From: an uncultured Gammaproteobacteria bacterium
GTDB lineage: Bacteria; Pseudomonadota; Gammaproteobacteria; JABCZS01
Direction: 5' to 3'
Assembly: GCA_963848305.1 (NCBI GenBank)
Contig: CAWKDC010000004.1
Span: 1-51,504, forward strand
Length of the DNA stretch: 51,504 bases
Below the pieces are notes generated by a model, which was not told where the DNA came from, did no database searches, and saw only the letters and a program-made list of their open reading frames with translations. Shown here in pieces: positions 1 to 50,334 of this stretch. Both the position numbers and the translations under genes were made by a program. Every line of letters begins with the position of its first letter. The stretch's first letter is position 1.

Positions 1-2443
1 ATGCCAGCAAGCGGACATGTTGTATCCGGCTGACCGATTTTGAGGAAGACATGAGTGCGTCTTCCCCTATTGAGCAGTACATGGTCTCAGTGCTCAATGG
101 TGATTGGTTGATGCCTCGGTGGTATCAGTGGTACCACAGTATGACCCAGGCAGAAATTGACCGGTATCTGCTCAGAACCTTTATGTTGTTTCGTGATAAA
201 AAGGATGCGCCACTTACAACATTTCGCCCAGGCGAGCAAGCAGTCATTGCGTTATTAGCACAAGGGGCATATTCACCCATCATGGGTTGCATTAATGCAG
301 TCAATCCAATGGGGGATATTGTTACGGAGAATTCTTATAGACAAAAACAGCGGTAAGACACCAACATGGTTTTCTCAGTTGATGAGAGGGTTTAGCGCGT
401 TAACGCGCTGGATATCGGATGATAAGCATAAACCAACCAATGTGACCGTGACCTCAGAAGGGGACATCTATCACATCAAGCATGGTGATAAACCACCCGT
501 AACTCACCATCGACTTATCGAAGCGAAGCAACAATATGCGGAGACATCCTGGTGGCAATTTTTCAAGAAACGGGCTTTAAGAAGAGATTACCCTTTTGAT
601 GTTCCCACACTGAGCCGTGCCTGGGATTGTTATTGGGTAGAGCAAGAGGAGGAATTGATGAAAGGTCAACGGTAAAGAAGCAAACGACGCAGACATGGCT
701 GCCAAAAAAAGGCGCGATGAGATGACAATCGTGCTTCGCACAGAAACATATTCAATGGGTGTTCTATACGACCATCATTTTCAGCCAAATTCACCAAAAC
801 ACCAAAGAGCTGGAAACAATTGTCAAAGATGAAAATAACTTTGTTCGTTTCAAGGAGCGGGTAACCGCTGTCAATGGGCGATGGAAAGCAAGGATGGAGG
901 AAATCCAGCAAATCATTGCTATTCTAAAGGCCAGAGCAAAGAGTACCCCTAAGGAAGACAGGCCTGCCAAGAGAACATCACACGATTTGAGAATCTATAC
1001 GAGCGCTCTGTAGATGGTGCATATCGCAAAGCTATGGAAAGCGCCGAAGAGAAGTTGGCACAAAATCCTCGGGCAGTACCGAACATTGTGCATGAGTGGC
1101 ATGGGGTGCAGAGGGAAATCTCAAAATATCTGGCCATATCTACAGAAAGGGTTTTGCATGCAGAAGGTAATGCCATTTTCACAGAGTATTATCGTTTGCT
1201 GGGATTGCTCAGTAAAATCCGAGCCTTGTTAGGGGAGAACAGTGCTAGCCCCTATACTCCAGCAAGTTACGGCTCAGGAAAGTGGGCTTGGAGAACATTA
1301 CAATAAATTAAATCAGGCACGAAGCATAGCCATTTCTGTCGGAACACAAAATTTTCAGTATTTGGGCGTAAAAGCAAATGATGAAATGCGTGCACTATTT
1401 GACAGCATGGCAGGACTCAGCGACATTAGCATCGAGCTTTTTGAACAGAATGCGGATGCTATTGTCAACAGATTCATATTGGAAACTCAACGGATCTGCT
1501 CAGGCGATGTGCCAGAGCTAGCGAAAGAAAGGGGTAATATCATCGAAGCGCTGAATGCGATTCAGCTGGAATACTCCAATCAATTAAAGGAACGTTTAAA
1601 AGAAGGGCAGCGAGCAGTAGTTGTGCTGGCCTCATCATCAGCTCGCCCTCAACCGACACGAGCCACTATCAACGCTGGTGAGATACCGCTAGAATTTCGT
1701 CAATACTCTTATGTTGCACTGGAGGCATATAAAATACTGGGTATTGACCCGGGGGCGCCAAGGGAAACCCTGGGCAGTATATATCGACACAAATCAATAT
1801 ATGTCCACCCGGATAAGTGCAATAATAACAGTGATGCTCATCATGAGTTCACGAAATTACAATGGGCGCATTTGTATTTGACCGAAAGCGAAGATTCAGT
1901 ATTGTATGACGATAAGCGTCATCCTTCATTGGCATTTATGTTAAGGAATATCGAAGAAACAGAAGAGTTTTTGGGAAAGAAGTTTGTATATCTGGAAGAG
2001 TCGATTGCGAAACTTGGCGAGAAACGGAGAGAGATTGCTGAGGAGCTGAGCGAGAATGCTGAGAGATGAGGAAGAATGCTGAGCAAAGCCAGGCCAATGG
2101 AGCATTATTAAGCGAGATCATTCTCTCGGGAGATGTGACGATCAAAGAAGTTTCCAGGGAAGTCAGGTCGCTTCGTGCGATGGTGGAGTTGTACATTGCG
2201 CAGCAACAATCAGGGGCGCCAAAAGCAGCCAGTGTGCCGCAGAGTCCTCATGCTGCTGACGATTCCCACACCGCACCAGAATTAGACACATCAAATACCA
2301 CAACAGATACTGCATCAACTGCGTCGAGCGGAAGAAATTCAATAGGTTCAACAAACGAACCGTTCACTATGATGTATGCAGGTGCTGGCAAGCCAACTGC
2401 GGATGCAGATCCTGACAGTACGATGGCAGCTGCGCCTACATAA
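1..2443 (+). CDS. J-domain (HPD) coiled-coil protein, array copy 1; 5'-partial and broken by several single-base frameshifts (probably sequencing errors)
   Basis: ORF fragments 51-356, 295-675, 759-1013, 1034-1306, 1242-2069 and 2066-2443 tile onto copy 2. Nt 1-1405 are near-identical to about 2530-3930. J-domain YKILGI...VHPDKC...FTKLQWAH. Same C-terminal tail (...STMAAAPT). Confidence 0.8.
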
Positions 2444-2456
2444 CGCAGGAGACTTT

Positions 2457-5180
2457 ATGTCACAAAGCCCACAAGAGATGTTTGAGCGTGTTGCGGGGAA
2501 GCTGAGTCAAGATGCTGAGTTTTCCAATATATGCCAGCAAGCGGACATGTTGTATCCGGCTGACCGATTTGAGGAAGACATGAGTGCGTCTTCCCCTATT
2601 GAGCAGTACATGGTCTCAGTGCTCAATGGTGATTGGTTGATGCCTCGGTGGTATCAGTGGTACCACAGTATGACCCAGGCAGAAATTGACCGGTATCTGC
2701 TCAGAACCTTTATGTTGTTTCGTGATAAAAAGGATGCGCCACTTACAACATTTCGCCCAGGCGAGCAAGCAGTCATTGCGTTATTAGCACAAGGGGCATA
2801 TTCACCCATCATGCGCTGCATTAATGCAGTCAATCCAATGGGGATATTGTTACGGAGAATCTATAGAGAATACTTCAGCAGTGAGACACCAACATGGTTT
2901 TCTCAGTTGATGAGAGGGTTTAACGCGTTAACGCGCTGGATATCGGATGATAAGCATAAACCAACCAATGTGACCGTGACCTCAGAAGGGGACATCTATC
3001 ACATCAAGCATGGTGATAAACCACCCGTAACTCACCATCGACTTATCGAAGCGAAGCAACAATATGCGGAGACATCCTGGTGGCAATTTTTCAAGAAACG
3101 GGCTTTAAGAAGAGATTACCCTTTTGATGTTCCCACACTGAGCCGTGCCTGGGATTGTTATTGGGTAGAGCAAGAGGAGGAATTGATGAAAGGTCAACGT
3201 AAAGAAGCAAACGACGCAGACATGGCTGCCAAAAAAAGGCGCGATGAGATGACAATCGTGCTTCGCACAGAAACATATTCAATGGGTGTTCTATACGACC
3301 ATCATTTCAGCCAAATTCACCAAAACACCAAAGAGCTGGAAACAATTGTCAAAGATGAAAATAACTTTGTTCGTTTCAAGGAGCGGGTAGGTGCTGTCAA
3401 TGGGCGATGGAAAGCAAGGATGGAGGAAATCCAGCAAATCATTGCTATTCTAAAGGCCAGAGCAAAGAGTACCCCTAAGGAAGACAGGGCCTGCCAAGAG
3501 AACATCACACGATTTGAGAATCTATACGAGCGCTCTGTAGATGGTGCATATCGCAAAGCCATGGAAAGCGCCGAAGAGAAGTTGGCACAAAATCCTTGGG
3601 CATTACCGAACATTGTGCATGAGTGGCATGGGGTGCAGAGGGAAATCTCAAAATATCTGGCCATATCTACAGAAAGGGTTTTGCATGCAGAAGGTAATGC
3701 CATTTTCACAGAGTATTATCGTTTGCTGGGATTGCTCAGTAAAATCCGAGCCTTGTTAGGGGAGAACAGTGCTAGCCCTATACTCCAGCAAGTTACGGCT
3801 CAGGAAAGTGGGCTTGGAGAACATCACAATAAATTAAATCAGGCACGAAGCATAGCCATTTCTGTCGGAACACAAGATTTTCAGTATTTTGGCGTAAAAG
3901 CAAACGATGAAATGCGTGCACTATTTGACAGCATGGGAGAGCTCAGCGACATTAGGATTCAGCTTTTTGAACAGAAAGCGGATGGCATCATCAACAACTT
4001 TATATCAAGAACGATGATTATCTGCTCAGGCGATGTGCCAGAGCTAGCGAAAGAAAGGGATGATATCATCAAAGCGCTGAGCGAGATTCAGCGCTCATTA
4101 TCTAATAAATTACAGAAACGAATAGCTGCATCGAGGGTAGCGGTTGTGGGTGTTTCGGCTCCGGCGCCTCTGCCAGCAGCCCCAAGAGCTGCTTCCAATG
4201 AAAGCATTGAAGAGCGAGTATACAGCTTCGATGCGCAGCGTGCTTATAAGTTGTTGGGTGTTGCTCCGGGTGTGCCTAAAAGTGCACTAGACAGCGCCTA
4301 TCGGAAAAAAGCATTAACATGCCATACAGATAAAAACTCGACAACAGGTCAGGACTTTCTTGACTTGAAAGAGGCACATCTTTTTCTGACAGAAAAAGGT
4401 GGGGATTTGCAATATGTGCATAAATCACAGGCAAATAGCTATGCATTTTGCTTAAGAAATGAGTTACAGAGTGTGGCATGGGATCGGGAAATGAAGCGGA
4501 GGAATAAGCAGACTCTGGAAGAAATCAAGCAAATTAATCGGTTCGGCGAAGCGCAAAATGCTGAGACTATTGGAATATGGCAGAGGATTTCTGAACAGCA
4601 AGATAAAATTGCAGCAAAGTGGAGGGAGATTGGTGCGGGATGGAGGAATATTGGAGAGACGAGTGCTGAAACCGCCAGGGACAGGAGAGAGTATTATGGG
4701 GAAGCATTTAAAAGACTAGATGCAATGCATCAGGATAGTCTGGAAACTGCTAAGAAAATTGAGGAGATCCAGGTGGTATCAAAGACCTGTCAAGATTTTG
4801 ACGAGCAACTGCAACAGGAGATCGTGCAAAATAGGCAGCAATTGCAGCAAAGCAGGCAAGAACTTGATGCAATCAAACAAGCAATAGTCTCAAACCTTGA
4901 ATTAGTGTTGGAAGACCACAATAAGGATAAAGACCCTGCGCAGCAGCTTCATTTCAGCTTGCCTTGTATGGTTCATGACCCAGACGACTCTCACACCGCC
5001 ACCGCACCAGAATTAGACACATCAAATACCACAACAGATACCGCTTCAACTGCGTCGAGTGGAAGAAATTCAATAGGTTCAACAAACGAACCGTTCACTA
5101 TGATGTATGCAGGTGCTGGCAAGCCAACTGCGGATGCAGCAGATCCTCATGACAGTACGATGGCAGCTGCGCCTACATAA
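2457..5180 (+). CDS. J-like-domain (HTD) coiled-coil protein, array copy 2 (907 aa), putative secreted effector
   Basis: Intact ORF. AGGAG RBS before ATG 2457. AYKLLGV...AYRKKALTCHTDKN...FLDLKEAH matches the J-domain pattern with HPD changed to HTD. Heptad-rich C-terminal part. Confidence 0.85.
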   Translation: MSQSPQEMFERVAGKLSQDAEFSNICQQADMLYPADRFEEDMSASSPIEQYMVSVLNGDWLMPRWYQWYHSMTQAEIDRYLLRTFMLFRDKKDAPLTTFRPGEQAVIALLAQGAYSPIMRCINAVNPMGILLRRIYREYFSSETPTWFSQLMRGFNALTRWISDDKHKPTNVTVTSEGDIYHIKHGDKPPVTHHRLIEAKQQYAETSWWQFFKKRALRRDYPFDVPTLSRAWDCYWVEQEEELMKGQRKEANDADMAAKKRRDEMTIVLRTETYSMGVLYDHHFSQIHQNTKELETIVKDENNFVRFKERVGAVNGRWKARMEEIQQIIAILKARAKSTPKEDRACQENITRFENLYERSVDGAYRKAMESAEEKLAQNPWALPNIVHEWHGVQREISKYLAISTERVLHAEGNAIFTEYYRLLGLLSKIRALLGENSASPILQQVTAQESGLGEHHNKLNQARSIAISVGTQDFQYFGVKANDEMRALFDSMGELSDIRIQLFEQKADGIINNFISRTMIICSGDVPELAKERDDIIKALSEIQRSLSNKLQKRIAASRVAVVGVSAPAPLPAAPRAASNESIEERVYSFDAQRAYKLLGVAPGVPKSALDSAYRKKALTCHTDKNSTTGQDFLDLKEAHLFLTEKGGDLQYVHKSQANSYAFCLRNELQSVAWDREMKRRNKQTLEEIKQINRFGEAQNAETIGIWQRISEQQDKIAAKWREIGAGWRNIGETSAETARDRREYYGEAFKRLDAMHQDSLETAKKIEEIQVVSKTCQDFDEQLQQEIVQNRQQLQQSRQELDAIKQAIVSNLELVLEDHNKDKDPAQQLHFSLPCMVHDPDDSHTATAPELDTSNTTTDTASTASSGRNSIGSTNEPFTMMYAGAGKPTADAADPHDSTMAAAPT

Positions 5181-5193
5181 CGCAGGAGACTTT

Positions 5194-7935
5194 ATGTCAC
5201 AAAGCCCACAAGAGATGTTTGAGCGTGTTGCGGGAAAGCTGAGTCAAGATGCTATGTTTTCCGATATATGCCAGCAAGCGGACATGTTGTATCCGGCTGA
5301 CCGATTTGAGAGAGACATGAGTGCGTCTTCCCCTATTGAGCAGTACATGGTCTCAGTGCTCAACGGTGATTGGTTGATGCCTCGGTGGTATCAGTGGTAC
5401 CACCGTATGACTCAGGCAGAAATCGACCGGTATCTGCTCAGAACCTTTATGTTGTTTCGTGATAAAAAGGATGCGCCGCTTACAACATTTCGCCCAGGCG
5501 AGCAAGCAGTCATTGCGTTATTAGCACAAGGGGCATATTCACCCATCATGCGCTGCATTAATGCAGTCAATCCAATGGGGATATTGTTACGGAGAATCTA
5601 TAGAGAATACTTCAGCAGTGAGACACCAACATGGTTTTCTCAGTTGATGAGAGGGTTTAACGCGTTAACGCGCTGGATATCGGATGATAAGCATAAGCTA
5701 ACCAATGTGACCGTGACCTTAGAAGGGGACATCTATCACATCAAGCATGGTGATAAACCACCCGTAACTCACCATCAACTTATCGAAGCGAAGCAACAAT
5801 ATGCGGAGACATCCTGGTGGCAATTTTTCAAGAAACGGGCTTTAAGAAGAGATTACCCTTTTGATGTTCCCACACTGAGCCGTGCCTGGGATTGTTATTG
5901 GGTAGAGCAAGAGGAGGAATTGATGAAGAAAGAGAGTGGAAAATTAACTTACAATCATGAAGCAGCAAAGCCCCTCCGAGATAAGATGAGAATTACGATT
6001 GGTTTGGAAGAATATCAGGTGGGTGAACGGTATCAGCATTATTGCTCTGAGCTCCATCGAATCCTCAAGGAACTGGATGGCATTCTTAATGAAAATAGGC
6101 GCGTCCGATTCGACGAAAGGTTGGAGTGCGCTGTAGAAGCATGGAATGAAAGCATCCTGGGGATCCAGCAAATCATTGCTATTCTCACAGACATACAGGC
6201 TTCCGGCGCCGATCAAAGTAAAGTTAAAGCATGTCAAGATAATGTGGTGCTTTTTGAAAGTTTGCGTGATTATGCGGAAGGTCTCCTGGTGCCCGCAAAA
6301 GCAAAGATACGTGAGAGGTTAGCCCAAGACCCTTGGTCACTACCCAATATTGTCAGTGAGTTTTCCGCAATAGAGAAGTCTATCAATGCATATCTCGCAA
6401 TATCGCATGACCGTCTTTTGCATGAGCATGCTGATTCAATGAATAAAGAGTACATTCGTCTAGTGTTGTTGCTGCAAAAAATGAAGGACTTACTTGGGGA
6501 TGGTAATACCAGCCCCATCCTCAGTGAAAAGATAATCGCACACGAACTCCAATTAGAGAAGAGGTACGAAGAATTGAAACAAGCGCGGGCGCTAGCCATT
6601 GCGGTCGCACGACAGGATTTTCAGGCTTTGTCTGTAACAGCAAACGATGAAATGCGTGCACTATTTGACGGCATGGGAGAGCTCAGCGACATTAGCATCG
6701 AGCTTTTTGAACAGAAAGCGGATGGCATCATCAACAACTTTATATCAAGAACGATGATTATCTGCTCAGGCGATGTGCCAGAGCTAGCGAAAGAAAGGGA
6801 TGATATCATCAAAGCGCTGAGCGAGATTCAGCGCTCATTATCTAATAAATTACAGAAACGAATAGCTGCATCGAGGGTAGCGGTTGTGGGTGTTTCGGCT
6901 CCGGCGCCTCTGCCAGCAGCCCCAAGAGCTGCTTCCAATGAAAGCATTGAAGAGCGAGTATACAGCTTCGATGCGCAGCGTGCTTATAAGTTGTTGGGTG
7001 TTGCTCCGGGTGTGCCTAAAAGTGCACTAGACAGCGCCTATCGGAAAAAAGCATTAACATGCCATACAGATAAAAACTCGACAACAGGTCAGGACTTTCT
7101 TGACTTGAAAGAGGCACATCTTTTTCTGACAGAAAAAGGTGGGGATTTGCAATATGTGCATAAATCACAGGCAAATAGCTATGCATTTTGCTTAAGAAAT
7201 GAGTTACAGAGTGTGGCATGGGATCGGGAAATGAAGCGGAGGAATAAGCAGACTCTGGAAGAAATCAAGCAAATTAATCGGTTCGGCGAAGCGCAAAATG
7301 CTGAGACTATTGGAATATGGCAGAGGATTTCTGAACAGCAAGATCAAATTGCAGCAAAGTGGAGGGAGATTGGTGCGGGATATACCGAAATTTCACAGGG
7401 GTGGGGAGATATACGAGAGATGCGCGCTGAAACCGCCAGGGACAGGAGAGAGTATTATGGGGAAGCATTTAAAAGACTAGATGCAATGCATCAGGATAGT
7501 CTGGAAACTGCTAAGAAAATTGAGGAGATCCAGGAGGTATCAAAGACCTGTCAAGATTTTGACGAGCAACTGCAACAGGAGATCGTGCAAAATAGGCAGC
7601 AATTGCAGCAAAGCAGGCAAGAACTTGATGCAATCAAACAAGCAATAGTCTCAAACCTTGAATTAGTGTTGGAAGACCACAATAAGGATAAAGACCCTGC
7701 GCAGCAGCTTCATTTCAGCTTGCCTTGTATGGTTCATGACCCAGACGACTCTCACACCGCCACCGCACCAGAATTAGACACATCAAATACCACAACAGAT
7801 ACCGCTTCAACTGCGTCGAGTGGAAGAAATTCAATAGGTTCAACAAACGAACCGTTCACTATGATGTATGCAGGTGCTGGCAAGCCAACTGCGGATGCAG
7901 ATCCTGACAGTACGATGGCAGCTGCGCCTACATAA
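5194..7935 (+). CDS. J-like-domain (HTD) coiled-coil protein, array copy 3 (913 aa)
   Basis: Intact ORF with the same RBS spacer. N-terminal and C-terminal parts near-identical to copy 2; central ~240 aa divergent. Confidence 0.85.
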   Translation: MSQSPQEMFERVAGKLSQDAMFSDICQQADMLYPADRFERDMSASSPIEQYMVSVLNGDWLMPRWYQWYHRMTQAEIDRYLLRTFMLFRDKKDAPLTTFRPGEQAVIALLAQGAYSPIMRCINAVNPMGILLRRIYREYFSSETPTWFSQLMRGFNALTRWISDDKHKLTNVTVTLEGDIYHIKHGDKPPVTHHQLIEAKQQYAETSWWQFFKKRALRRDYPFDVPTLSRAWDCYWVEQEEELMKKESGKLTYNHEAAKPLRDKMRITIGLEEYQVGERYQHYCSELHRILKELDGILNENRRVRFDERLECAVEAWNESILGIQQIIAILTDIQASGADQSKVKACQDNVVLFESLRDYAEGLLVPAKAKIRERLAQDPWSLPNIVSEFSAIEKSINAYLAISHDRLLHEHADSMNKEYIRLVLLLQKMKDLLGDGNTSPILSEKIIAHELQLEKRYEELKQARALAIAVARQDFQALSVTANDEMRALFDGMGELSDISIELFEQKADGIINNFISRTMIICSGDVPELAKERDDIIKALSEIQRSLSNKLQKRIAASRVAVVGVSAPAPLPAAPRAASNESIEERVYSFDAQRAYKLLGVAPGVPKSALDSAYRKKALTCHTDKNSTTGQDFLDLKEAHLFLTEKGGDLQYVHKSQANSYAFCLRNELQSVAWDREMKRRNKQTLEEIKQINRFGEAQNAETIGIWQRISEQQDQIAAKWREIGAGYTEISQGWGDIREMRAETARDRREYYGEAFKRLDAMHQDSLETAKKIEEIQEVSKTCQDFDEQLQQEIVQNRQQLQQSRQELDAIKQAIVSNLELVLEDHNKDKDPAQQLHFSLPCMVHDPDDSHTATAPELDTSNTTTDTASTASSGRNSIGSTNEPFTMMYAGAGKPTADADPDSTMAAAPT

Positions 7936-7948
7936 CGCAGGAGACTTT

Positions 7949-10255
7949 ATGTCACAAAGCCCACAAGAGATGTTTATGCGTGTTGCGGGGAAGCTTAGTC
8001 AAGATGCTAAGTTTTCCGATATATGCCAGCAAGCGGACATGTTGTATCCGGCTGACCGATTTGAGGAAGACATGAGTGCGTCTTCCCCTATTGAGCAGTA
8101 CATAGTCTCATTGCTAGGCGGTGGCTGGCTCATGCCATTTTGGTATCGGTGGTACCACAGTATGACTCAGGCAGAAATCGACCGTTATGTGGTTAGAGCG
8201 CTCTTACTGTTTCGTGATAAAAAGGATGCGCCGCTTACAACATTTCGCCCAGGCGAGCAGGCATTGATAGGGCTTTTGGGCGGAAGTGTATATTCACCGA
8301 TAGTACACTTCCTCAATGCCATGAACCCTATTGGCATACTATTGCGCAGAGTATGCTCAATCTATGGCCGTATCAGCCGCGAAACTGCAGATTGGTTTTG
8401 GCAAGTAAGTAAACAGCCATCCACGAGCAATGCGATAGTACCGATGCCTAACCAAAGACAGGAAGAAATACCTTGGTGGCAAGTATTCAAAAAACGGGCA
8501 ATAAAACAGGCTTGGGACGATTACTGGTCTGGGCAAGAGCATGCCTCTTTTCAAAAAAGCGATGTGGAGGAGCAAAAGATGAAAAACACTGAGAACGAAT
8601 TAACCTGAACCGGAACTCAATTTATCGCTATTGACAATGAGCAATATGAGATTGGCCAATGGATTAGCCAAATCAACCACGCCACACAAGCCGCAATCTC
8701 TCAGCTTGAAAAATTGGTGAATGAGGATGATAGGGATGTTTTTTGGGAGCAAGTTACACTTGCCCATCAATCCTGGGAAAAGTGCTGTGAAAACCATCAG
8801 AAAACTGTAATCTCCCTGCGTGCAATGTCCCAACCAGACAATGCCATGCAAGAAGGTTTAGACAATTTGCAGGTTTTATTCAAGAGAGCAAAAGAACGCT
8901 GGGAAGCAGTGAATAGAAAGATAGAGCAGAAATTGCGACAAAACCCTTGGTCACCAGAAAGTATAGAAGCTCAGTGGGAAACAACGAAAGAAGCTGTGCG
9001 TTCCTATCAGTCCGATAAGCCAGATGGTTGGTTTTTGAGCGAAGGTGTTGAAGCCGTTAAGCGTGAGTACGAAGAATTAATGTCTGCATTCAAGCGGATC
9101 AAAGTGCTTCTTCGGGGAAACAGTGCAAGCAGCATACTCGATGAAATGGATGAGTGGGGTAAGGCAGTCAACGCCTGTTATCGTTTGCGCAGTTTTCAGA
9201 TATTGCTCAAAGCAAGTCAGGCAGAAAAGGAGTTTTATGCTCTGGCTCAAGAAGTAGTCAGGAAAATGAAAGGCGAATATGATGCAATGTTGAATTGTAA
9301 AAGGGTAGATATATCGGTTTATCTTGAAAAATCAAACAAATTAATCGCTGACTTTATTAAAAAGACCAGGGAAATAAATCCAGCTTGCTTGCAAAAGCTT
9401 GACGAAAGGAGAAAATGGCTTGAAGGTATGCTCAAATCTTTTCAAGAAAAATACTGCAGGCATTTAGAGGAACGATTAGTTGAAATCGATGCAGAAAGAA
9501 CAGCCCTTGCCACCGTACCTGCGCCCGAACCCACGCCAAGATCACAGATCTCTTCTGCAGAAGCTTCGGATGAAATATCCCTGGAGCATCGAAAATATTA
9601 TTTCATGGCAGAGCACGCATATCAAGTACTGGGGATCGAACTGGGGGCGCCCAAAAATAAATTAGAGAGTGCATATCGAAAACAATCATTAAATTTTCAT
9701 CCTGATAAAAATTCAGACTGCGCTGATGAATTCATGAAATTGAAATGGGCGTTGTTACATTTAACGACAAACGATAAAGAAGCATTGTATGTTGACAATC
9801 GTAATATCCCGCATGAATTTTATATAAAAGATGCACTGGAAACGGAGGAATTTAAAAGGGAAGGCTGCATTTATATTAAAAACGCCATTGCTGAAATATC
9901 TGCAAAGCATAAAGAGCGCGCAAGGGCAATCAAAATTATGGATGCGGAGATAAAGGCACTTGAGGAAGGGGCCAAGATCAATGGAGAACATCAACAGAAA
10001 AATGACGAAAAACTAAAAAACATTGTTAATCGAATGGACATCTTGTTTGAAAAGCTAGCGCTTTATGAAGCGCAACAAGCAACTGGCGCTGAGCCTTTAG
10101 TACTTCAGACATCCAATGTCGCCGAAGAGTCGCGTGATACAACGCCATCTAGCGACAGTTTGAGCGTAGGATCACCACCAATTACATTTGCATACAAAGC
10201 AGAAACATTACAAATACCAGTCTCCGAAAACGAGGCAAGGTTTGTTCCTGAGTAA
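7949..10255 (+). CDS. J-domain (HPD) protein, array copy 4, interrupted by one in-frame TGA at 8606-8608
   Basis: ORFs 7949-8608 and 8714-10255 share one frame and 8609-8713 is open (TGTQFIAIDNEQYEIGQW..., aligning with ITIGLEEYQVGERY of copy 3). J-domain AYQVLGI...FHPDKN. Confidence 0.8.
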
Positions 10256-10285
10256 GATGCTCTAAGTAACACCGCAGGAGAATCC

Positions 10286-10486
10286 ATGTCCTCACCAACG
10301 CCGCAAGAAAGATTCAAGAGGGTGGCGAACCTGTTGGGACAAGACTTGGCATTTTCCAATATATGCCAGCAAGCGAACATGGTGTATCCGGCTGACCGAT
10401 TTGAGGAAGACATGAGTGCGTCTTCCCCTATTGAGCAGTACATGGTCTCAGTGCTCAATGGTGATTGGTTGATGCCTCGGGGCTAG
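10286..10486 (+). pseudogene. Truncated array copy 5 (N-terminal 66 aa only)
   Basis: CGCAGGAGA RBS. Nt ~10352-10479 are near-identical to the start of copy 2 (FSNICQQA...DWLMPR), then an abrupt stop. Confidence 0.8.
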
Positions 10487-10534
10487 ATCAGACAGACTAA
10501 GTCAATAGAGTGTGTTCAGCAGATGAAATGCTAT

Positions 10535-10636
10535 CGCGCTTTCAGCGCTACCATATTCTTTCTATATTTTACCTGGGGTTACGATGCGCTGCGCGCATCT
10601 CACCCCAGGCTATTTCCTTTGGAGGCCTACGGCCTC
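10535..10636. repeat. REP-like multi-hairpin palindromic element
   Basis: GCGCTTTCAGCGC; CCTGGGGT..GATGCGC-TGC-GCGCATC..ACCCCAGG; GAGGCC-TAC-GGCCTC. Confidence 0.6.
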
Positions 10637-10840: not shown

Positions 10841-10918
10841 CGCAGCGTGGCTGCATAGCTGGTTCGGTTTTAGGGGGCAATTCCACCTTCAAAAAAAACC
10901 GCCTTTCGGCGGTTTTTT
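10841..10918 (+). ncRNA. Candidate ~80-nt small RNA of unknown family
   Basis: Lies between a promoter-like motif and an intrinsic terminator. 5' hairpin GCAGC-GTG-GCTGC. No plausible ORF. Confidence 0.4.
10891..10918. terminator. Bidirectional intrinsic terminator
   Basis: AAAAAAAACCGCC-TTTC-GGCGGTTTTTT. Confidence 0.85.
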
Positions 10919-10945: not shown

Positions 10946-11659
10946 TTACATGAAGCGATAGAACAAGCTAGCGCCAATGATATCAGAAATGTAGTAGTCT
11001 TCTTGGTTGTTGAAGTTAGGCGCAACAACGGTATACTCACCACGGATACCAAACTGTTCATAGCTTAACTCAAGACCAGCGCCGTATGTCAGAGCAAAGG
11101 TGCTCAACTCAGGATTTGGATCTGGGTATTGGGTAGATAATCCGCCATCAAGGTCGGTGGTGTTGACATAGTAAGCGATACCGCCTTTAGCGAATACATC
11201 GAAATAGTCGCCAATCGGCCACTTAACAAGACCTACACCGTGTACATTCCACTGATTTACCTGAGCTGTTTGTGTACAGATGTCTTTGCAACCTGGGATC
11301 CCAAGATCATAACCAGTTGAGCGAAACTCTTGTTGACCTAACCAGGTATAACCGACTTCAAATGCAAAATGGTTGCTGACTTTGCGACCAACGTAAACAT
11401 CGAAGCCTGTGCCATTCTCAGATTTTTCAAACGAGGTGACGTGGCCATATTGGCTCTCATCCCAAGGCATGTCAACAGTTGGTAATTTAGCGCTTTGAGA
11501 TGCATCCCAATTAGCGCCAGCGCCGATGTACCAGCCTTCAGCCCAGTTACTGTTGTAACCATGATGGCTGTAGGAAGGTGCGTTTTGTCCACCAGCAGAA
11601 GCCGTTAAGCACAAGGCCAGCGTGGCAGCTGATGACAAAGTTAGTTGTCTTATGTTCAT
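10946..11659 (-). CDS. Outer-membrane beta-barrel protein (OmpA transmembrane-like), paralogue A
   Basis: Signal peptide; GWYIGAG; FAFEVGY; FAKGGIAY; YGAGLE; C-terminal YRFM. Confidence 0.85.
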   Translation of the reverse strand: MNIRQLTLSSAATLALCLTASAGGQNAPSYSHHGYNSNWAEGWYIGAGANWDASQSAKLPTVDMPWDESQYGHVTSFEKSENGTGFDVYVGRKVSNHFAFEVGYTWLGQQEFRSTGYDLGIPGCKDICTQTAQVNQWNVHGVGLVKWPIGDYFDVFAKGGIAYYVNTTDLDGGLSTQYPDPNPELSTFALTYGAGLELSYEQFGIRGEYTVVAPNFNNQEDYYISDIIGASLFYRFM

Positions 11660-11813
11660 ATTATTCCCCTATTACGTGATAGTTGTATGCCGGGTGCAGA
11701 TCAGTTTCAAGCTCATTCTTCTTGACAGCAAACTTATTTGCGGTTGGGCTAGGATTTGATAAAACAACGGCTCTTTTATGAAATTCTATTCGGTTGCCCG
11801 ACACAATATTTCG

Positions 11814-11842
11814 AGTATAGAAGGGGATTTTGATGTTTTCAA
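11814..11842 (-). promoter_or_regulatory. sigma70 promoter of OMP paralogue A
   Basis: TTGAAA-N17-TATACT on the minus strand. Confidence 0.65.
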
Positions 11843-11887
11843 GTGGAAAACTAAATAAATTGTTCAAAATTTGAACAGGTCAAAGAT

Positions 11888-11915
11888 AAAAAAAGGCCAC
11901 CCGAAGGTGGCCTTT
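11888..11915 (-). terminator. Intrinsic terminator of OMP paralogue B
   Basis: AAAGGCCACC-CGAA-GGTGGCCTTT hairpin with a minus-strand U tract. Confidence 0.85.
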
Positions 11916-11941
11916 CATTGACTCAGCGTCACTATCCCTTC

Positions 11942-12652
11942 TTAGATGAAGCGATAGAACAAGCTAGCACCTACCAATTGGGAGATGTAGAATGCGTTTT
12001 GGTTTGCTTGTGTCGTGGCCAAGCCTGTGTATTCGCCACGAACGCCAAAGCGATCGCTGCCAATTTCAAGACCTGCGCCATAAACGAAGGCAAAGGAGCT
12101 CAGCTCGTTATCACCAATGAAGTATGGAACACCGTCATCGTCTCCTGAGAACTCAGTTTTATTGGAGTAGTAAGCTGCGCCGCCCTTTGCGAATACACTG
12201 AAGTATTCTGCAACTGGCCAGTAAGCCAAGCCTACAGCATGAATATTCCATTGTTCGACTTTACCATAAACGGGGTCTTTAGGATCGCCGCCGTCGGTGA
12301 AACCTTGGAATTTCTGATCGCCAACCCAAGAGTAACCCAATTCGAACGCAAAGTGTCTGTGGACTCTTTTGCCGACATAAATATCGAAGCCGACATCGTT
12401 GTCTTCAAGTTCGAAATTATATGTGTCTTCAAAGCTTCCATAAAACCAAGGCGCATTGGCATAGAGCGTTTCGTTTGTGTTGGCGACATCCCCGTTCACA
12501 CCTGCACCAACGTACCAGCCTTGAGCCCAGTTATCGTGATGATGTTTACGGCCTTCATGGCTATAAGAAGGATTATTAACGCCGCCAGCAGATGCAGTCA
12601 CGCACAATGCCAGCGTTGCAGCTGTTGCTAAACATACTTGTTTCATATTCAT
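11942..12652 (-). CDS. Outer-membrane beta-barrel protein, paralogue B
   Basis: AGGGG RBS before MNMKQVCLA signal peptide; OmpA-type strands; C-terminal YRFI. Confidence 0.85.
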   Translation of the reverse strand: MNMKQVCLATAATLALCVTASAGGVNNPSYSHEGRKHHHDNWAQGWYVGAGVNGDVANTNETLYANAPWFYGSFEDTYNFELEDNDVGFDIYVGKRVHRHFAFELGYSWVGDQKFQGFTDGGDPKDPVYGKVEQWNIHAVGLAYWPVAEYFSVFAKGGAAYYSNKTEFSGDDDGVPYFIGDNELSSFAFVYGAGLEIGSDRFGVRGEYTGLATTQANQNAFYISQLVGASLFYRFI

Positions 12653-12781
12653 CAGTTTTCCCCTATTACGTAATAGATAGAATGCCCGCAAAACAAATAA
12701 ATGCTTTGCTATACGCAGAGGATTTGATAAGAGAATGAGGCTTAGCAAATCCGTTTGCAGTATTTTTGACATGTTGGAAAG

Positions 12782-12810
12782 ATTATAGGACGAGTGTTTG
12801 ATATTTGCAA
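12782..12810 (-). promoter_or_regulatory. sigma70 promoter of OMP paralogue B
   Basis: TTGCAA-N17-TATAAT on the minus strand. Confidence 0.75.
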
Positions 12811-12852
12811 GGAATTTGATACAAAAGATTAAAAGTAAGGTATTTAAAATGC

Positions 12853-12882
12853 AAAAAGGTGCCCTTTGCAGAGCACCTTTTT
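12853..12882 (-). terminator. Intrinsic terminator of OMP paralogue C
   Basis: AAAAAGGTGC...GCACCTTTTT. Confidence 0.8.
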
Positions 12883-12895
12883 GGCACGTTCAGGC

Positions 12896-13603
12896 TTAGA
12901 AGCGGTAGAACACGCTAGCACCTACCAATTGGGAGATGTAGAATGCGTTTTGATTTGCTTGGGTTGTGGTCAAGCCTGTGTATTCACCACGAACACCAAA
13001 GTGATCAACGCCGATTTCAAGTCCTGCACCATAAACGAAGGCAAAAGAATCCAATTTGTTTTCGCCATCGTAGTAGCCAGTTCCCTCGTCAATTTCAGTG
13101 AACTCAGTTTTATTGGAGTAGTAAGCTGCACCACCCTTCAAGAAAACACTGAAGTATTCTGCGACTGGCCAGTAAGCCAAGCCAACGGCATGAATGTTCC
13201 ATTGTTCAACTTTAGCTTTGTATATATAAGCGCTATCATTGTAGTATAAGCTTTGGAATTTCTGATCGCCAACCCAAGAGTAACCCAATTCAAACGCAAA
13301 GTGTTTGTGGGTTCTTTTACCGACATAAATATCGAAGCCGACATCGTTGTCTTCTTGCTGGAAGTCCGCACCATCAGAGCCAAAGCTATATAAATACCAA
13401 GGCGCAATGGCTTCGATTTGTTCGTTTGTGTTGGCGACATCTCCGTTCACACCTGCACCAACGTACCAGCCGTGTGACCAGTCATGGTGATGATGCTCGT
13501 GTCCTTCATGGCTATAAGAAGGATTATTAACGCCGCCAGCAGATGCAGTCACGCACAATGCCAGCGTTGCAGCTGTTGCTAAACATACTTGTTTCATATT
13601 CAT
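12896..13603 (-). CDS. Outer-membrane beta-barrel protein, paralogue C
   Basis: Same signal peptide and strands as B; C-terminal YRF. Confidence 0.85.
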   Translation of the reverse strand: MNMKQVCLATAATLALCVTASAGGVNNPSYSHEGHEHHHHDWSHGWYVGAGVNGDVANTNEQIEAIAPWYLYSFGSDGADFQQEDNDVGFDIYVGKRTHKHFAFELGYSWVGDQKFQSLYYNDSAYIYKAKVEQWNIHAVGLAYWPVAEYFSVFLKGGAAYYSNKTEFTEIDEGTGYYDGENKLDSFAFVYGAGLEIGVDHFGVRGEYTGLTTTQANQNAFYISQLVGASVFYRF

Positions 13604-13732
13604 CAGTTTTCCCCTATTACGTAATAGATAGAATGCCCGCAAAGCAAATAAATGCTTTGCCATACGCAGAGGATTTGATAAGAGAATGAGGCTTAGCAAA
13701 TCCGTTTGCAGTATTTTTGACATGTTGAAAGG

Positions 13733-13761
13733 ATTATAAGACGAGAGTTTTGTATTTGCAA
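13733..13761 (-). promoter_or_regulatory. sigma70 promoter of OMP paralogue C
   Basis: TTGCAA-N17-TATAAT on the minus strand. Confidence 0.75.
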
Positions 13762-13803
13762 GGAATTTGATACAAAAGGTTAAAAGGAAGGTATTTAAAA
13801 TGC

Positions 13804-13833
13804 AAAAAGGTGCCCTTTGCAGAGCACCTTTTT
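13804..13833 (-). terminator. Intrinsic terminator of OMP paralogue D
   Basis: Identical to 12853-12882. Confidence 0.8.
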
Positions 13834-13846
13834 GGCACGTTCAGGC

Positions 13847-14542
13847 TTAGAAGCGGTAGAACACGCTAGCACCTACCAATTGGGAGATGTAGAATGCGTT
13901 TTGATTTGCTTGGGTTGTGGTCAAGCCTGTGTATTCACCACGAACACCAAAGTGATCAACAGCGATTTCAAGACCTGCGCCATAGACGAAAGCAAATGTA
14001 CTCAGCTCATTGTTGCCCCAGAAGTATTCATCGCCAGCATCATTTTCAGAGAATTCAGTTTTATTGGAGTAGTAAGCTGCACCACCCTTCAAGAAAACAC
14101 TGAAGTATTCTGCGACTGGCCAGTAAGCCAAACCAACCGCGTGAATATTCCATTGTTCCACTTTGGCATAATTGATCCGATCCTCTGAGTATAGCGATTG
14201 GAATTTCTGATCGCCAACCAAAGAGTAACCCAGTTCAAACGCAAAGTGTTTGTGGGTTCTTTTGCCGACATAAATGTCGAAACCAACATCGTTGTCATTT
14301 AATTGAAATTCACCCGAATCAAAGGATTCTAAAAACCAAATAGAGTTTGCATAAACAGTTTCGTTTTCATTTGCCACGTCACCATTCACACCTGCACCAA
14401 CGTACCAGCCGTGTGACCAGTCATGGTGATGATGCTCGTGTCCTTCATGATTATAAGAAGGATTGTTCACGCCGCCAGCAGATGCAGCCACGCACAATGC
14501 CAGCGTTGCAGCTGTTGCTAAACATACTTGTTTCATATTCAT
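13847..14542 (-). CDS. Outer-membrane beta-barrel protein, paralogue D
   Basis: Near-identical signal peptide and strands; C-terminal YRF. Confidence 0.85.
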   Translation of the reverse strand: MNMKQVCLATAATLALCVAASAGGVNNPSYNHEGHEHHHHDWSHGWYVGAGVNGDVANENETVYANSIWFLESFDSGEFQLNDNDVGFDIYVGKRTHKHFAFELGYSLVGDQKFQSLYSEDRINYAKVEQWNIHAVGLAYWPVAEYFSVFLKGGAAYYSNKTEFSENDAGDEYFWGNNELSTFAFVYGAGLEIAVDHFGVRGEYTGLTTTQANQNAFYISQLVGASVFYRF

Positions 14543-14665
14543 CAGTTTTCCCCTATGACGTAATAGATAGAATGTCCGCAAAACGGAATTGTTTTGCCAT
14601 ATACAGAGGATTTGATAAATGAGGCTTAGCAAATCCGTTTGCACTATTATTGACATATTCAAGCC

Positions 14666-14694
14666 AGTATAAAGGCTGTTTTTGATATTTGCAA
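14666..14694 (-). promoter_or_regulatory. sigma70 promoter of OMP paralogue D
   Basis: TTGCAA-N17-TATACT on the minus strand. Confidence 0.7.
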
Positions 14695-14863
14695 GAAAGT
14701 TTGATAAAGAACGTTCCATTTTTAAAATGAAAGGAGGGCGCGTTAGGTGCAACTGACTAATAAAAAATAAATTTTTTGGTGATACCGTTTCTCGACAAAT
14801 TGAATTACAATGTTACAACGACGCGCCATATTACGCGGCGCATCACGTTATCAAGGAGGATAT

Positions 14864-16822
14864 ATGTCGTGTTTCTTACGTAGTGTCAGTGCGCTTAGCT
14901 TGACATTCTCATGTCTGCTGACAGCATATGCAGACAACGCATCGGTTGATGCATCCATGTTGTGTATTCAAGGTATGACCGGATGCGGTATCGCTTATGA
15001 TACTCCTATCGAATCTACCCCTACGCCCATGATTCTGGGGAATACATACCAAACAAGTTACACGATTGATAATCAAAGTGGCAATACAGTGAGCATTGTA
15101 CTGAGTCTGGAAGAGCTGGACGTACTCGGTGACACCGGAGCGGTTACCATTGATGGAAGTACCACTTGCCCACTCGATGGCGATCTTGACTCAGACACAT
15201 CCTGCAATATCGTGCTTGATTTTCAACCTACTATCGCTGGTGACTTAAGCTGGACGTTCACAATTACCCCAGACACTGTGCAACTGCCTTTAGTGTTGCC
15301 GCTACAAGCGACTGTGCAATCGTTAGCCATCATTTCGGCTGCTGGTGGTTATTACAGCGATGGTGCTAATACCTACCCCCTGCTTGCTATCTCAACAGAT
15401 GGCGGTGACTGGGGCTATTCGCTTGATGGTTCAACATCCCCCCTGCCTTATGGTTTGGATTCCGGGTCATCTGCAACCATTACTTCAGTGAGTTGTTCAT
15501 CCCTTGCTTATTGCGCTGCGGCCGGCCAATATTCAGTTGCTTATTCTCTCTATCCCTTTGCCGCCTCCTATAATGGCGTAGATAGCTGGGCATACACATT
15601 TGACTACAACACTGTTCAAACACTGATCACTGACGATTCTTTTGACTATAACGGTTATGGCGGTTTTAACGCTGCATTCTGTTTAGGTGATGTTTGTATG
15701 TTGGGCGGATCTTATGTAAATACCTCCGAATACACCTACCCCATGTTGGTGACCAGTGTGAGTGGTGGAGACTGGGCGTTAGATGTCTCTAGTGCGGAGA
15801 ATCTTCCTGAAGATATAACAACCAGCTCGACCCCATATCAAGGTATATTCGGCTTGAATGGTGCTGGCAGTAACTTTGTGTTGTCCGGGTGGTATACCAA
15901 TACCAGCAGTGCGGCAGTTCCTTTATTAGCCTACAGTGATGACAATGGCAGCACGTGGACATATCCTTCACCTTCGGATATTGCTGGCTTGCTACCAAGC
16001 GATTACAACTCTAATGCTGAACTTCTTGCTCTGGACTGCAGTGGCAGTATTTGTATAACTTCCGGAAGCTATATCAATGGTTCTACCAGCCAGGGGCTCG
16101 CCTACATGAGCTTTGACCAAGGCGAAACCTGGCCCCTGACCTACTCAAGCGATAGCCCCCTCGCTCCATCCGATTGGGCAGGATCCGGTAATGGCGCCCT
16201 TTATGGTGTCAGCTGCAACGAGTATGCATGTGCAATCGCTGGAGGCTATTGGATTGGTTATCCAGCCCCCTACATGGCTGTCGCTGTATTCAGCGATGAG
16301 TATCCTTGCACCGACTCGAGTAACTGTAATTGGGTTGTTGCGATAAATTCTAGCACCAATCTTCCGAGTGATGATTCTAGTAGCGCCTCATTCAACAATG
16401 TCGCTTGTGCGCAAACAACCTGTGTTGCCGTTGGATCCTATGTTAGTTCAATCGATGGCAATGTATACCCGCTCGTTGGCACATATGATCTGGCGCTTGG
16501 CACGGTGTCATATACGGTTGATCAAAGCAGTATCAACACGACCATCGATGCAAATGATACACCGCCTGATTATTATCTCTCAGGATCCTCATATACAAAC
16601 TTGTTGCAAGTCGATTGTTCGTTAGCATCCTGTGTTGCATCAGGTTATTATTCTAGCGCGGAAAACACTGGCTCCACTTCCTACCCATTCTTGGTGACAA
16701 GCACTGATTCGGGAAACACGTGGAGCTACGCCATCGATGGCGACCCATCAACACTTCCTTCATCATTCGCTTCGGGAGTGTTCAAGTCGGATGGCATCAC
16801 ACCACCTACATTGAAAAAGTAA
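14864..16822 (+). CDS. Secreted Cys-rich Asp-box/BNR-repeat protein (probable Ig-like domain plus beta-propeller), copy 1
   Basis: GGAGG RBS; signal peptide ending AYA-D; Asp-boxes SDDNGSTW, SFDQGETW, STDSGNTW; repeated Cx4-5C..GxY...YP units. Confidence 0.75.
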   Translation: MSCFLRSVSALSLTFSCLLTAYADNASVDASMLCIQGMTGCGIAYDTPIESTPTPMILGNTYQTSYTIDNQSGNTVSIVLSLEELDVLGDTGAVTIDGSTTCPLDGDLDSDTSCNIVLDFQPTIAGDLSWTFTITPDTVQLPLVLPLQATVQSLAIISAAGGYYSDGANTYPLLAISTDGGDWGYSLDGSTSPLPYGLDSGSSATITSVSCSSLAYCAAAGQYSVAYSLYPFAASYNGVDSWAYTFDYNTVQTLITDDSFDYNGYGGFNAAFCLGDVCMLGGSYVNTSEYTYPMLVTSVSGGDWALDVSSAENLPEDITTSSTPYQGIFGLNGAGSNFVLSGWYTNTSSAAVPLLAYSDDNGSTWTYPSPSDIAGLLPSDYNSNAELLALDCSGSICITSGSYINGSTSQGLAYMSFDQGETWPLTYSSDSPLAPSDWAGSGNGALYGVSCNEYACAIAGGYWIGYPAPYMAVAVFSDEYPCTDSSNCNWVVAINSSTNLPSDDSSSASFNNVACAQTTCVAVGSYVSSIDGNVYPLVGTYDLALGTVSYTVDQSSINTTIDANDTPPDYYLSGSSYTNLLQVDCSLASCVASGYYSSAENTGSTSYPFLVTSTDSGNTWSYAIDGDPSTLPSSFASGVFKSDGITPPTLKK

Positions 16823-16955
16823 TTCGGTCAATGTAAAAAGTTGTGATGACGCGACAAGGGGCATGAAAATTTTCAAGCCCCTTGTTTTTTATAAAGTAAA
16901 CACTATTTACTTAGTAGGCTATGATTATAGCATGCCAGATTATCAAGGAGGATAT

Positions 16956-20475: not shown

Positions 20476-20553
20476 GACAAAATCCCTTTGATGACGAGCA
20501 TCTAAGGTTACGCCTTCCCCCAGTTAATTTCAAGTATGTTACAATCGCGAACC

Positions 20554-21927
20554 ATGAAGACGATTAAATCACGATTTGCCCCCAGCCCGACTGGCGCCCT
20601 GCATATTGGCAGCGTGCGCACAGCTTTGTTTGCCTATTTGGCGGCGAAACACCATCAAGGCCAGTTTGTCTTGCGGATTGAAGACACGGACGGTGAGCGT
20701 TCCACCAAAGCTTCTGCGGATGGCATTTTAGAAGCCATGGCTTGGTTGTCTCTGTTGCCCGATGAAGGTGCCTGATTATCAGTCTGATCGATTAGCTCGC
20801 TACCGCGAGATTGGCGATGAGTTGCTCGAGAAAAATTTGGCGTACCGCTGCTATTGCAGCAAAGAACGTTTAGAAGTGTTACGGGAAGGGCAGATTGAGC
20901 GCAAAGAAAAGGCCCGTTATGATGGTTTGTGTCGAGACTTGAAAGGTGACAGCTCGGCTCCCCATGTCCTGCGTTTTAAAACACCTGCCACAGGTGCTAT
21001 TACGTTTGTCGATTGCGTGCGTGGGCCTATCACGGTGGACAATCAAGAACTAGATGATCTCGTGTTGATCCGTCAAGATGGTATGCCGACGTATAATTTT
21101 GCAGTGGTCGTGGATGATCATGACATGGCGATCACACACGTGATCCGCGGCGATGATCACATCAATAATACACCCCGTCAATTGCATTTGTTCAAAGCAT
21201 TGGGTTGGAATGAACCCATTTACGGCCATATCCCGATGATTTTGGGGGAAGATGGTAAACGTTTATCCAAGCGTCACGGCGCACTGAATGTTTTAGAATA
21301 CCGCGATGCAGGGTTTTTACCGGAAGCTGTGTTGAATTATTTGGTGCGTTTAGGTTGGTCACATAAAGATCAAGAAATATTTAGCTTATCTGAGATGGTC
21401 AACTTGTTTGATATGAATCATTTGTCTCATTCGCCTGCGGCATTGAATATGCAAAAGCTAGAGTGGCTGAATCAGCATTATATGCGCAGCATGCCGCTTG
21501 ATGAATTGGCACGGCGTGCGCGGCCCTTCTTTAAAGTATTGGATTTGAATGTGGCACAAGGCCCCGCATTGGTCGATGTGCTGGCTTTGCAAGTCGAACG
21601 CTGCAAAACATTGAAAGAGTTGGCTGATCATTCACGGTTCTTTTACGAAAAACCTGTTAGGGATACGGATGCTCAGGCGAAACTGGATAACCCTAAATCC
21701 CCTGAGATTTTGTCTGCTGCTTTGGCTGTGTTCCGGGATACAGATTTCACCCCTGATGCCTTGAAGGCGGCCTTGTCAGCCCTGTGCCAACAGCTGGGCA
21801 TGAAGATGGGCGAGGTGCGCCCGTCTTGCGTGCGGCCATCACGGGTACCTTACATTCCCCCTCGTTGGATAAGACGCTGGCGCTGTTGGGGAAGGATGAG
21901 GTCTGTCGGCGTTTGACGCATCTTTAA
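20554..21927 (+). CDS. gltX: Glutamate--tRNA ligase (two apparent frameshifts at ~20770 and ~21820)
   Basis: [31 protein letters not shown]; the C-terminus continues in another frame as [15 protein letters not shown]. Confidence 0.95.
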
Positions 21928-49895: not shown

Positions 49896-50019
49896 GATAA
49901 TAGTCGGGATGGGGAGCAGGGTCAAAGGGTTTTGGGAATGCAGGGTTTTTTTAAAAAGGGCTTGCTTATTGGGGAAAATTCCTTTAAAATCCGGGTCTAG
50001 TTCAAAAGGGAGATGCACT

Positions 50020-50334
50020 ATGCATGCTGTAATTAAGACAGGTGGCCGGCAAATTAAGGTCGCTGTAGGGGATACCTTCAAAATCCACAAAATGCCTGTT
50101 GACACAGGTAACGAAGTGGCGTTTGATGAAGTGTTGCTTCTGACAGACGGCGCCGGTAATGTAACAATCGGTCAACCATTAGTCAAAGGGGCAAAAGTAC
50201 TTGCAAAAGTATTGAGTCATGGTCGGGGGGCTAATATCCTGATCCAAAAGTTCAGACGTCGTAAACATTACGATAAAATCCAAGGTCATCGTCAAGATTT
50301 CACTGAAATTGAAATCGTGGGCATCAACGTTTAA
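50020..50334 (+). CDS. rplU: 50S ribosomal protein L21
   Basis: [24 protein letters not shown]. Confidence 0.97.

Follow-up and report, generated by a model that had tools for sequence, protein, structure and literature searches.

Mosaic J-domain genes in a recombining tandem array of an uncultured gammaproteobacterium

A mosaic tandem array at two contig ends

We analyzed bases 1-51504 of contig C4 from the genome of an uncultured gammaproteobacterium (1.89 Mb in four contigs); this whole stretch of 51,504 nucleotides (nt) is here called the window. Its first part (1-10486, + strand) consists of four gene units of ~2.4-2.8 kb encoding J-domain proteins, followed by a stub of 66 codons. The units are mosaics of shared and deeply diverged segments, and the mosaic pattern is real. 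The distribution of sequence differences shows it to be of the kind produced by homologous recombination between tandem paralogues, through unequal crossing-over and gene conversion. A recombining array whose products are likely injected, Hsp70-recruiting effectors is, in our judgment, the probable explanation of the locus as a whole. The features of the array in the window are as follows.

1-2443, + strand: copy u1, its 5' end cut by the contig start; segments M1, linker L1 and J1; HPD motif at 1806-1814
2444-2456, again at 5181-5193 and 7936-7948, + strand: spacer CGCAGGAGACTTT, 13 nt, with an AGGAG ribosome-binding site
2457-5180, + strand: copy u2, intact, 907 amino acids (aa); M1, L2 and J2
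2457-3191: N domain of u2, followed by M1 (3192-3899), a conserved block (3900-3929), L (3930-4019) and a second conserved block (4020-4058)
~4221-4397: J domain of u2, with HTD at 4323-4331; tail from 5004
5194-7935, + strand: copy u3, intact, 913 aa; M3, an L2-like linker and J2
5194-5928: N domain of u3, followed by M3 (5929-6639), a conserved block (6640-6669), L (6670-6759) and a second conserved block (6760-6798)
6799-6960: pre-J part of u3, followed by J (6961-7137, HTD at 7063-7071), coiled coil (7138-7764) and tail (7765-7932)
7949-10255, + strand: copy u4; N-b, M4 and J4; in-frame TGA at 8606-8608 between N and M; HPD at 9698-9706
10286-10486, + strand: stub u5, 66 codons of the N domain, with the alternative start MSSPTPQERF

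Copy u1 lacks its 5' end because the window begins at the first base of C4. The true starts of u2, u3 and u4 are ATG codons at 2457, 5194 and 7949, each directly after the spacer, which is identical at the u1/u2, u2/u3 and u3/u4 joints, as had been noted from the sequence beforehand. Longer open reading frames (ORFs) listed from 2376, 5107 and 7868 begin inside the tail of the preceding copy. The additional open frame (MQVLASQLRMQ..., at 2376-2456, 5107-5193 and 7868-7948) adds 27-29 codons to these mechanically called ORFs and most likely arises from the repetition itself and does not extend the genes. Given the short spacers, the array genes are taken to be co-transcribed. A pattern scan found no + strand terminator between the copies, and promoter and terminator matches showed no excess over shuffled sequences (16 against 18.3, and 9 against 10.2).

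The array extends onto a second contig, C3, whose final 7.7 kb hold three more copies and the beginning of a fourth.

C3: copy A, intact, 824 aa; M1 and J1
C3: copy B, the counterpart of u4 (96% identical), which shares its in-frame TGA (in B at L004 12406-12408)
C3: copy C, start as in stub u5, then M3 and J1', frameshifted
C3: copy D, first 302 nt only on C3

The locus in the window is one end of a head-to-tail series that comprises at least eight full genes plus the stub and bridges the gap between C3 and C4. A 26,660-nt contig of another assembly carries intact equivalents of C (P0015, 854 aa), D (P0017, 852 aa, M1+L2+J1') and u1 (P0003, 813 aa). P0017 shows D to be complete and situated between C and u1, so that a simple overlap of C3 with C4 does not apply. 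Stub u5 is the right-hand end of the array; its MSSPTPQERF start also begins the full-length copy C and P0015.

The original prediction, made from the sequence alone, had described the copies as mosaics and not as uniformly diverged duplicates, and an identity scan, a maximum chi-square analysis and the contrast in synonymous divergence (dS) all bear this out. In a scan with 60-nt windows, u1 and u2 are ~100% identical over N and M, ~45-60% over J and the coiled coil and 94-100% over the tail; u2 and u3 are 95-100% identical over N, 40-68% over M and 100% from the linker to the end. Together with per-segment identities, this agrees with the predicted scheme in which the first two copies have a common M and different J segments, and the second and third a common J and different M segments. 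At the protein level M1 and M3 are 40% identical, and J1 and J2 49%. The fourth copy does have an M and a J of its own (19-26% and 47-53% identical to those of the other copies, with N at ~65%), and the fifth is the N-terminal stub that it was thought to be. By protein identity the segments can be sorted into types; for L these refer to the 30 residues between the two conserved blocks.

N types: N-a in A, C, D, u1, u2 and u3; N-b in B and u4
M types: M1 in A, D, u1 and u2; M3 in C and u3; M4 in B and u4
L types: L1 in A, C and u1; L2 in D, u2 and u3
J types: J1 in A and u1; J1' in C and D; J2 in u2 and u3; J4 in B and u4

With the B/u4 type left out, five of the eight possible M x L x J combinations are present. 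Between u2 and u3, dS is 0.049 in N and 2.7 in M, and it is 2.5 in the J region (A vs u2); a contrast this large at the silent sites of one gene pair argues for different histories, not different constraint. The M and J segments, 700-1200 nt each and only ~50% identical between types, stand ~130 nt apart, and between these saturated segments lie islands of 30 and 40 nt that are 100% identical at the nucleotide level. What has been exchanged between copies are homologous variants of corresponding parts, kept in a constant order, and not unrelated domains.

Breakpoints and mode of recombination

Maximum chi-square analysis of u2 against u1 and u3 found it u1-like at 326 of 344 informative sites to the left of 3930 and at 3 of 344 to the right. 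In four triplets, that of u2 included, 0 of 500 permutations each reached the observed value. Breakpoints were placed at 3930-3937 in u2, at 6700-6717 in u3, at C3 241605-241660 in C, at C3 236733-236759 in A and at the 40-nt block in D. All lie inside or at the edge of the ~130-nt conserved stretch between M and J, at positions that vary by copy. The N/M and coiled-coil/tail borders are the ends of long homogenized regions, one comprising N and the other the tail, spacer and next N. It had been proposed that the copies switch at four short shared blocks. Each of these does occur once in u1, u2 and u3, but the breakpoints of u2 and u3 are not confined to them.

Because the breakpoints differ from copy to copy and are scattered over the ~130-nt stretch, they point to ordinary homologous recombination and not to a dedicated cassette mechanism. 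By this process the N domain, the M-J stretch and the tail plus spacer are kept near-identical, and the M and J/coiled-coil segments are old, deeply diverged variants re-assorted across the identical stretches. Sequence identity makes exchange possible, and exchange in turn maintains identity.

A dedicated, frequently switching cassette system with programmed or hot-spot recombination, as in antigenic-variation loci, has little support and appears improbable. The number of combinations found and the islands of perfect identity amid saturated segments are what such a system might leave behind, and other samples, with some loose ends and a single joint, give a hint of additional arrangements. 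In pilE/pilS, vlsE and msp2, segmental recombination between repeats likewise yields mosaic coding sequences, with one expressed gene fed by silent partial cassettes. In the array, by contrast, the copies are complete genes in series: u2, u3 and A, and in other assemblies also C, D and u1, are complete frames with their own ATG and AGGAG, and we found no single expression site supplied by promoterless partial copies. Nor is there a fixed switch site, and no recombinase family was matched among the 36 window ORFs of at least 150 aa and four upstream C3 ORFs. The same copies C, D and u1, moreover, recur in another assembly. Of the predicted recombination-driven cassette system, recombination between copies therefore stands, and the dedicated mechanism is not supported.

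Several observations invite the suspicion that the mosaics are artefacts, with segments joined wrongly when a repeat was assembled or polished from noisy long-read metagenome data, but such chimeras are very unlikely. The array sits at two contig ends, and other data lack the many homopolymer indels of copies u1 and C. Seven such single-base indels (38, 311, 671, 778, 960, 1249 and 2063) split u1 into six ORFs; the first six are differences from u2 inside otherwise identical sequence. We compared the array with Logan contigs from four runs (X1-X4) in four studies (soil, 2024 and 2025; wetland, 2017). These lack the indels at 671, 778, 960 and 1249 (X3) and at 2063 (X1, X2 and X3). Housekeeping genes and dotH are frameshifted too, and the breaks in u1 and C are on both grounds probably errors near contig ends and not decay. 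No Logan contig of the four runs bridges L2 to J2, the junction of u2 and u3; the contigs end at the 40-nt shared block, as is expected of assembly from short words, and the gap has no weight either way. The other evidence speaks against chimeras. The M and J segments are long, only ~50% identical between types and no more than ~130 nt apart, and any read of a few kb links them. The frames of u2 and u3 run for 907 and 913 codons without a break. The arrangements M1+L1+J1, M3+L1+J1' and M1+L2+J1' are intact in other assemblies, and one of them is found in a short-read contig: that of X4 passes from M1+L2 into J1 at the 40-nt block, as copy D does. A further record, P0001, encodes M3+J1. Logan contigs at >= 95% identity cover M1, M3, M4, J1, J2 and J4, and one from X3 (1833-2555) spans the junction of tail, spacer and next N.

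The frame-broken genes outside the array are gltX, a PIN-PhoH gene and dotH/icmK, and a polyprenyl synthase gene is truncated (window ~20480-21916, 42789-44200 and 49239-50105; G000 C1 920666-921368). These breaks look like assembly indel errors; the alternative is decay.

The in-frame TGA at the N-M border occurs in both u4 and B, after which the frame is open for ~550 codons. Beyond the stop, the ratio of nonsynonymous to synonymous divergence (dN/dS) between the two is 0.25 (9+9 changes). A fragment from another assembly, P0008, has a frame change at the same position. The first in-frame start after the TGA of u4 is a TTG at 8714, without a Shine-Dalgarno site. These copies may represent a dead gene, a split gene with a restart, or read-through.

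Protein architecture and the J domain

The proteins have a fixed order of parts: an N domain of ~245 aa, three three-helix bundles (M plus linker), a Pro/Ala-rich spacer, the J domain, a coiled coil and a tail in which Ser, Thr and Ala abound. An AlphaFold2 model of u3, built from 12 aligned sequences, has a mean predicted local distance difference test (pLDDT) score of 65.9; residues 260-565 are modeled with confidence as the three bundles, and the J domain is followed by a coiled coil of ~200 residues and a disordered tail. Residues 264-565 align with spectrin repeats 14-17 and plectin plakin repeats at Z 10.5-11.7 (264-281 residues, root-mean-square deviation (rmsd) 16-20). As the alignment tool rates the chance level for helical models at a Z of ~13, and the best spectrin rows reach 10.8-11.7, the resemblance to spectrin-type three-helix-bundle repeats is one of arrangement only. 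The N domain modeled alone (pLDDT 69.4) gave no fold match, the best VIA-align Z being 4.8; scores of this order point neither to a new fold nor to a known one. No membrane-spanning segment was detected in the protein, and the large family members are predicted to be cytosolic. S, T, A, G or P make up 40 of the last 60 residues, a stretch that is net acidic (seven D+E vs two K+R). In Dot/Icm effectors a C-terminal translocation signal is marked by a final ~30 aa with small, polar and acidic residues.

The predicted J domains are genuine on both sequence and model. The Pfam DnaJ model PF00226 scores above its cut-off of 27.8 bits in all four units (u1, 44.2; u2, 29.0; u3, 29.1; u4, 39.8), and Pfam matched nothing else above cut-off in u1-u4, DnaJ_C included. 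Foldseek aligned the modeled J fold to 2lo1 with a probability of 1.00, a target template modeling (TM) score of 0.72 and an rmsd of 1.4 over 57 columns, and matched 2och, 2m6y and 1hdj similarly; pLDDT in this part of the model is 61-84. With the full model as query, Foldseek matched the J domain alone and gave no match at E 0.001 or better. With the NCBIfam models, too, matches are limited to the J part and reach 15-34 bits, far under the cut-offs of 150-619.

A J domain and DnaK form a textbook pair. The HPD motif, which is required for stimulation of Hsp70, is present in J1, J1' and J4 and in the distant relatives P0009, P0011 and P0014. J2 of u2 and u3 has HTD in its place. Short-read contigs of X1 (6770-7232) and X2 (6770-7344) match J2 of u3 without differences and are consistent with the HTD reading (6770-7232 in both). 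Given the need for HPD, J2 may be impaired or inactive; it may instead bind Hsp70 without activating it, or act differently.

Possible function of the array proteins

The presence of Dot/Icm genes, which had been named as a point to check, was confirmed. A Dot/Icm (type IVB) cluster on contig C1 includes TrbI (DotG), DotH, DotI, T2SSE (DotB), T4SS_TraI (DotC), DotD, IcmS, DotM_C (DotM) and TraG-D_C (DotL), with dotH split into two frames; the genome thus encodes such a system. Its DotB is 75-91% identical to records titled uncultured Gammaproteobacteria (one Legionellales) and ~57-61% identical to metagenome-assembled genomes titled Legionellaceae, Coxiellaceae or Francisellaceae.

With a Dot/Icm system in the genome, injected effectors that recruit host Hsp70 are the likeliest reading of the array proteins, and we lean towards it. 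The likeliest working model, by analogy, is HopI1, a type III effector of Pseudomonas syringae. The J domain of that protein attaches to host Hsp70, raises the ATPase activity of the chaperone and moves it to another location (PMC4617103); HopI1 is described there as a 432-aa protein delivered by type III secretion, with proline/glutamine-rich (P/Q-rich) disordered repeats and the J domain in its C-terminal region (PMC4617103). The array proteins differ in length (770-913 aa), in their folded helical bundles, in the ~200-aa coiled coil and tail after the J domain and in belonging to a recombining tandem array in a Dot/Icm genome. On the HopI1 model, the proteins would enter a eukaryotic host, probably a protist, by injection; there the J domain would recruit host Hsp70 and the variable N-terminal and helical parts would set the place or the client.

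Paralogous effector families of the Legionella kind, and tandem gene-conversion mosaics, show lineage-specific expansion in which conserved parts are homogenized and variable parts retained. In the literature searched, a clean three-segment re-assortment within one array and a J domain are not described for such families. In the main text of an atlas of 368 L. pneumophila effectors a J domain is mentioned 0 times, and our searches found no description of a J-domain Dot/Icm effector in the literature covered.

The chief competing view is that the proteins are non-injected co-chaperones of the bacterium's own DnaK, comparable to CbpA, DjlA or class C proteins, and that the paralogues expanded without a host-directed role. 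We consider this unlikely, though it is the likeliest of the alternatives. J domains are universal. For J1, sequence searches of the PDB gave E 9e-6 with E. coli DnaJ, close to the E 2e-6 obtained with eukaryotic DNAJC5. Two distant relatives bear the source label 'curved DNA-binding protein CbpA', and secretion is something that we infer. The array proteins share with DnaJ, CbpA and DjlA the J domain (PF00226), but theirs is internal (residues ~590-650) and not N-terminal, and they have no glycine/phenylalanine (G/F) region, zinc finger or DnaJ C-terminal domain. The features of class A or B DnaJ/CbpA proteins, namely an N-terminal J domain, G/F and DnaJ C-terminal domains and scores above the NCBIfam cut-offs, are accordingly missing. 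In the PDB, a collection with a bias towards eukaryotic proteins, the ten best matches of J2 all come from eukaryotes. Paralogue turnover is rapid, and the family is absent from the two congeners searched and from 399 other sampled gammaproteobacterial genomes. Rapid turnover and restricted distribution, together with coiled coils, a disordered acidic tail and orphan or ankyrin-like neighbors in a Dot/Icm genome, are typical of effectors, and all are seen here.

Several points weigh against injected Hsp70-recruiting effectors in a recombining array. J domains also act inside bacteria, and E. coli DnaJ is among the about equally good matches of J1. Injection, Hsp70 binding and co-transcription are all things that we infer; among the sequencing runs containing the stretch, none is recorded as RNA. 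The family's absence from the two congeners searched implies that it is not core to the biology of the lineage. Two of the eight copies, B and u4, may be dead, as both carry the premature stop. The assembly contains indel errors or decay (gltX, the PIN-PhoH gene and dotH being frameshifted), the M1+L2+J2 and M3+L2+J2 junctions of u2 and u3 are known from this assembly alone, and the other assembly may derive from the same sample. Taken together, the interpretation first offered for the locus is partly supported.

J-domain effectors have so far been known from the type III system of a plant pathogen. The array is an unusually clean natural case of segment re-assortment, with a ~50-fold contrast in synonymous divergence between neighboring gene parts. 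If the proteins are injected, they would provide matched natural chimeras for separating the part that sets the target from the part that handles Hsp70, with a natural HPD-to-HTD variant on offer. A more far-reaching suggestion, and in our view a doubtful one, is that the array is a standing combinatorial library whose identity islands let recombination keep yielding pairings of targeting and Hsp70 parts. Were this so, the pairings present would vary from strain to strain within a population and would span activating J domains (HPD) and a non-activating HTD form that holds or blocks Hsp70, and an intracellular bacterium would have a new way to diversify its use of host chaperones.

Distribution of the family

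The family had not been recognized from the sequence, and Pfam, NCBIfam, PDB sequence and fold searches and the ESM Atlas gave the same outcome. A PDB sequence search with a profile of the N and M parts gave nothing significant (best E 0.02), and the ESM Atlas gave no usable match for residues 1-590 or 1-245. Searching with u3 found four proteins among 5.8 billion clusters; a search of 1.84 billion representatives with the N+M profile yielded 11 proteins, of which several belong to this genome itself. In an order-level comparison of 12 genomes (one family, four genera), the N and M parts were found in this genome only, the others matching J positions alone, and when the class was sampled evenly, the profile matched none of the 399 other gammaproteobacterial genomes scored, one genome being left out of the scoring. 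Parts of the array are present in soil and wetland metagenomes from 13 studies. A u3-based search of genome and metagenome contigs found no relative, and an exact 24-nt pattern had no match in metagenome contigs, both in searches that may omit the window's own genome and near kin; tblastn of the N and M parts gave no match among plasmids. As far as searched, this is a new, very rare, lineage-restricted family, confined to one uncultured species and a few metagenome fragments and expanded to ten or so paralogues.

The distant relatives P0009, P0011 and P0014 are 18-22% identical to the array proteins and keep the order of N, helical, J and coiled-coil parts, as well as a motif, I-P-L-E-x-R-x-Y-S, just before the J domain. 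In the Pfam J model P0009 and P0011 score 50 bits; P0014 has no match. The counter-argument that the protein might belong to a characterized family with fixed architecture holds in part: the order is fixed in the distant relatives, but the family itself is uncharacterized. Two distant paralogues lie elsewhere in the genome.

L004 3515-6607 (G000 C3), upstream of the array: 1030 aa, with the same N and helical parts
G000 C1 750638-751906: P0010, 386 aa, shorter, without a J domain

Near its C-terminus the 1030-aa paralogue has a J-like stretch with APDKN where the J domains of the family have HPDK.

Neighboring features

Upstream of the array, C3 encodes large orphan proteins, one with a weak ankyrin match. 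Directly after the array in the window, four tandem genes for OmpA-like outer-membrane beta-barrel proteins (10946-14752, - strand) encode 237, 276, 275 and 301 aa and form a second array of paralogues. They are followed on the + strand (14810-18905) by adjacent genes for proteins of 670 and 680 aa, 75% identical and each with a hydrophobic N-terminal stretch; Pfam gave no family for these two except a weak BNR-like match.

10891-10918, strand not assigned: G+C-rich hairpin with 11-nt arms and a 4-nt loop, an A run on one side and a T run on the other; not listed by the pattern scan

This hairpin resembles a bidirectional terminator and stands between the array and the gene for the first outer-membrane protein. 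Just past stub u5, at ~10531-10635, there is an element of ~100 nt that may be a small dispersed repeat, since contig C1 has three copies of it (75-79% identity).

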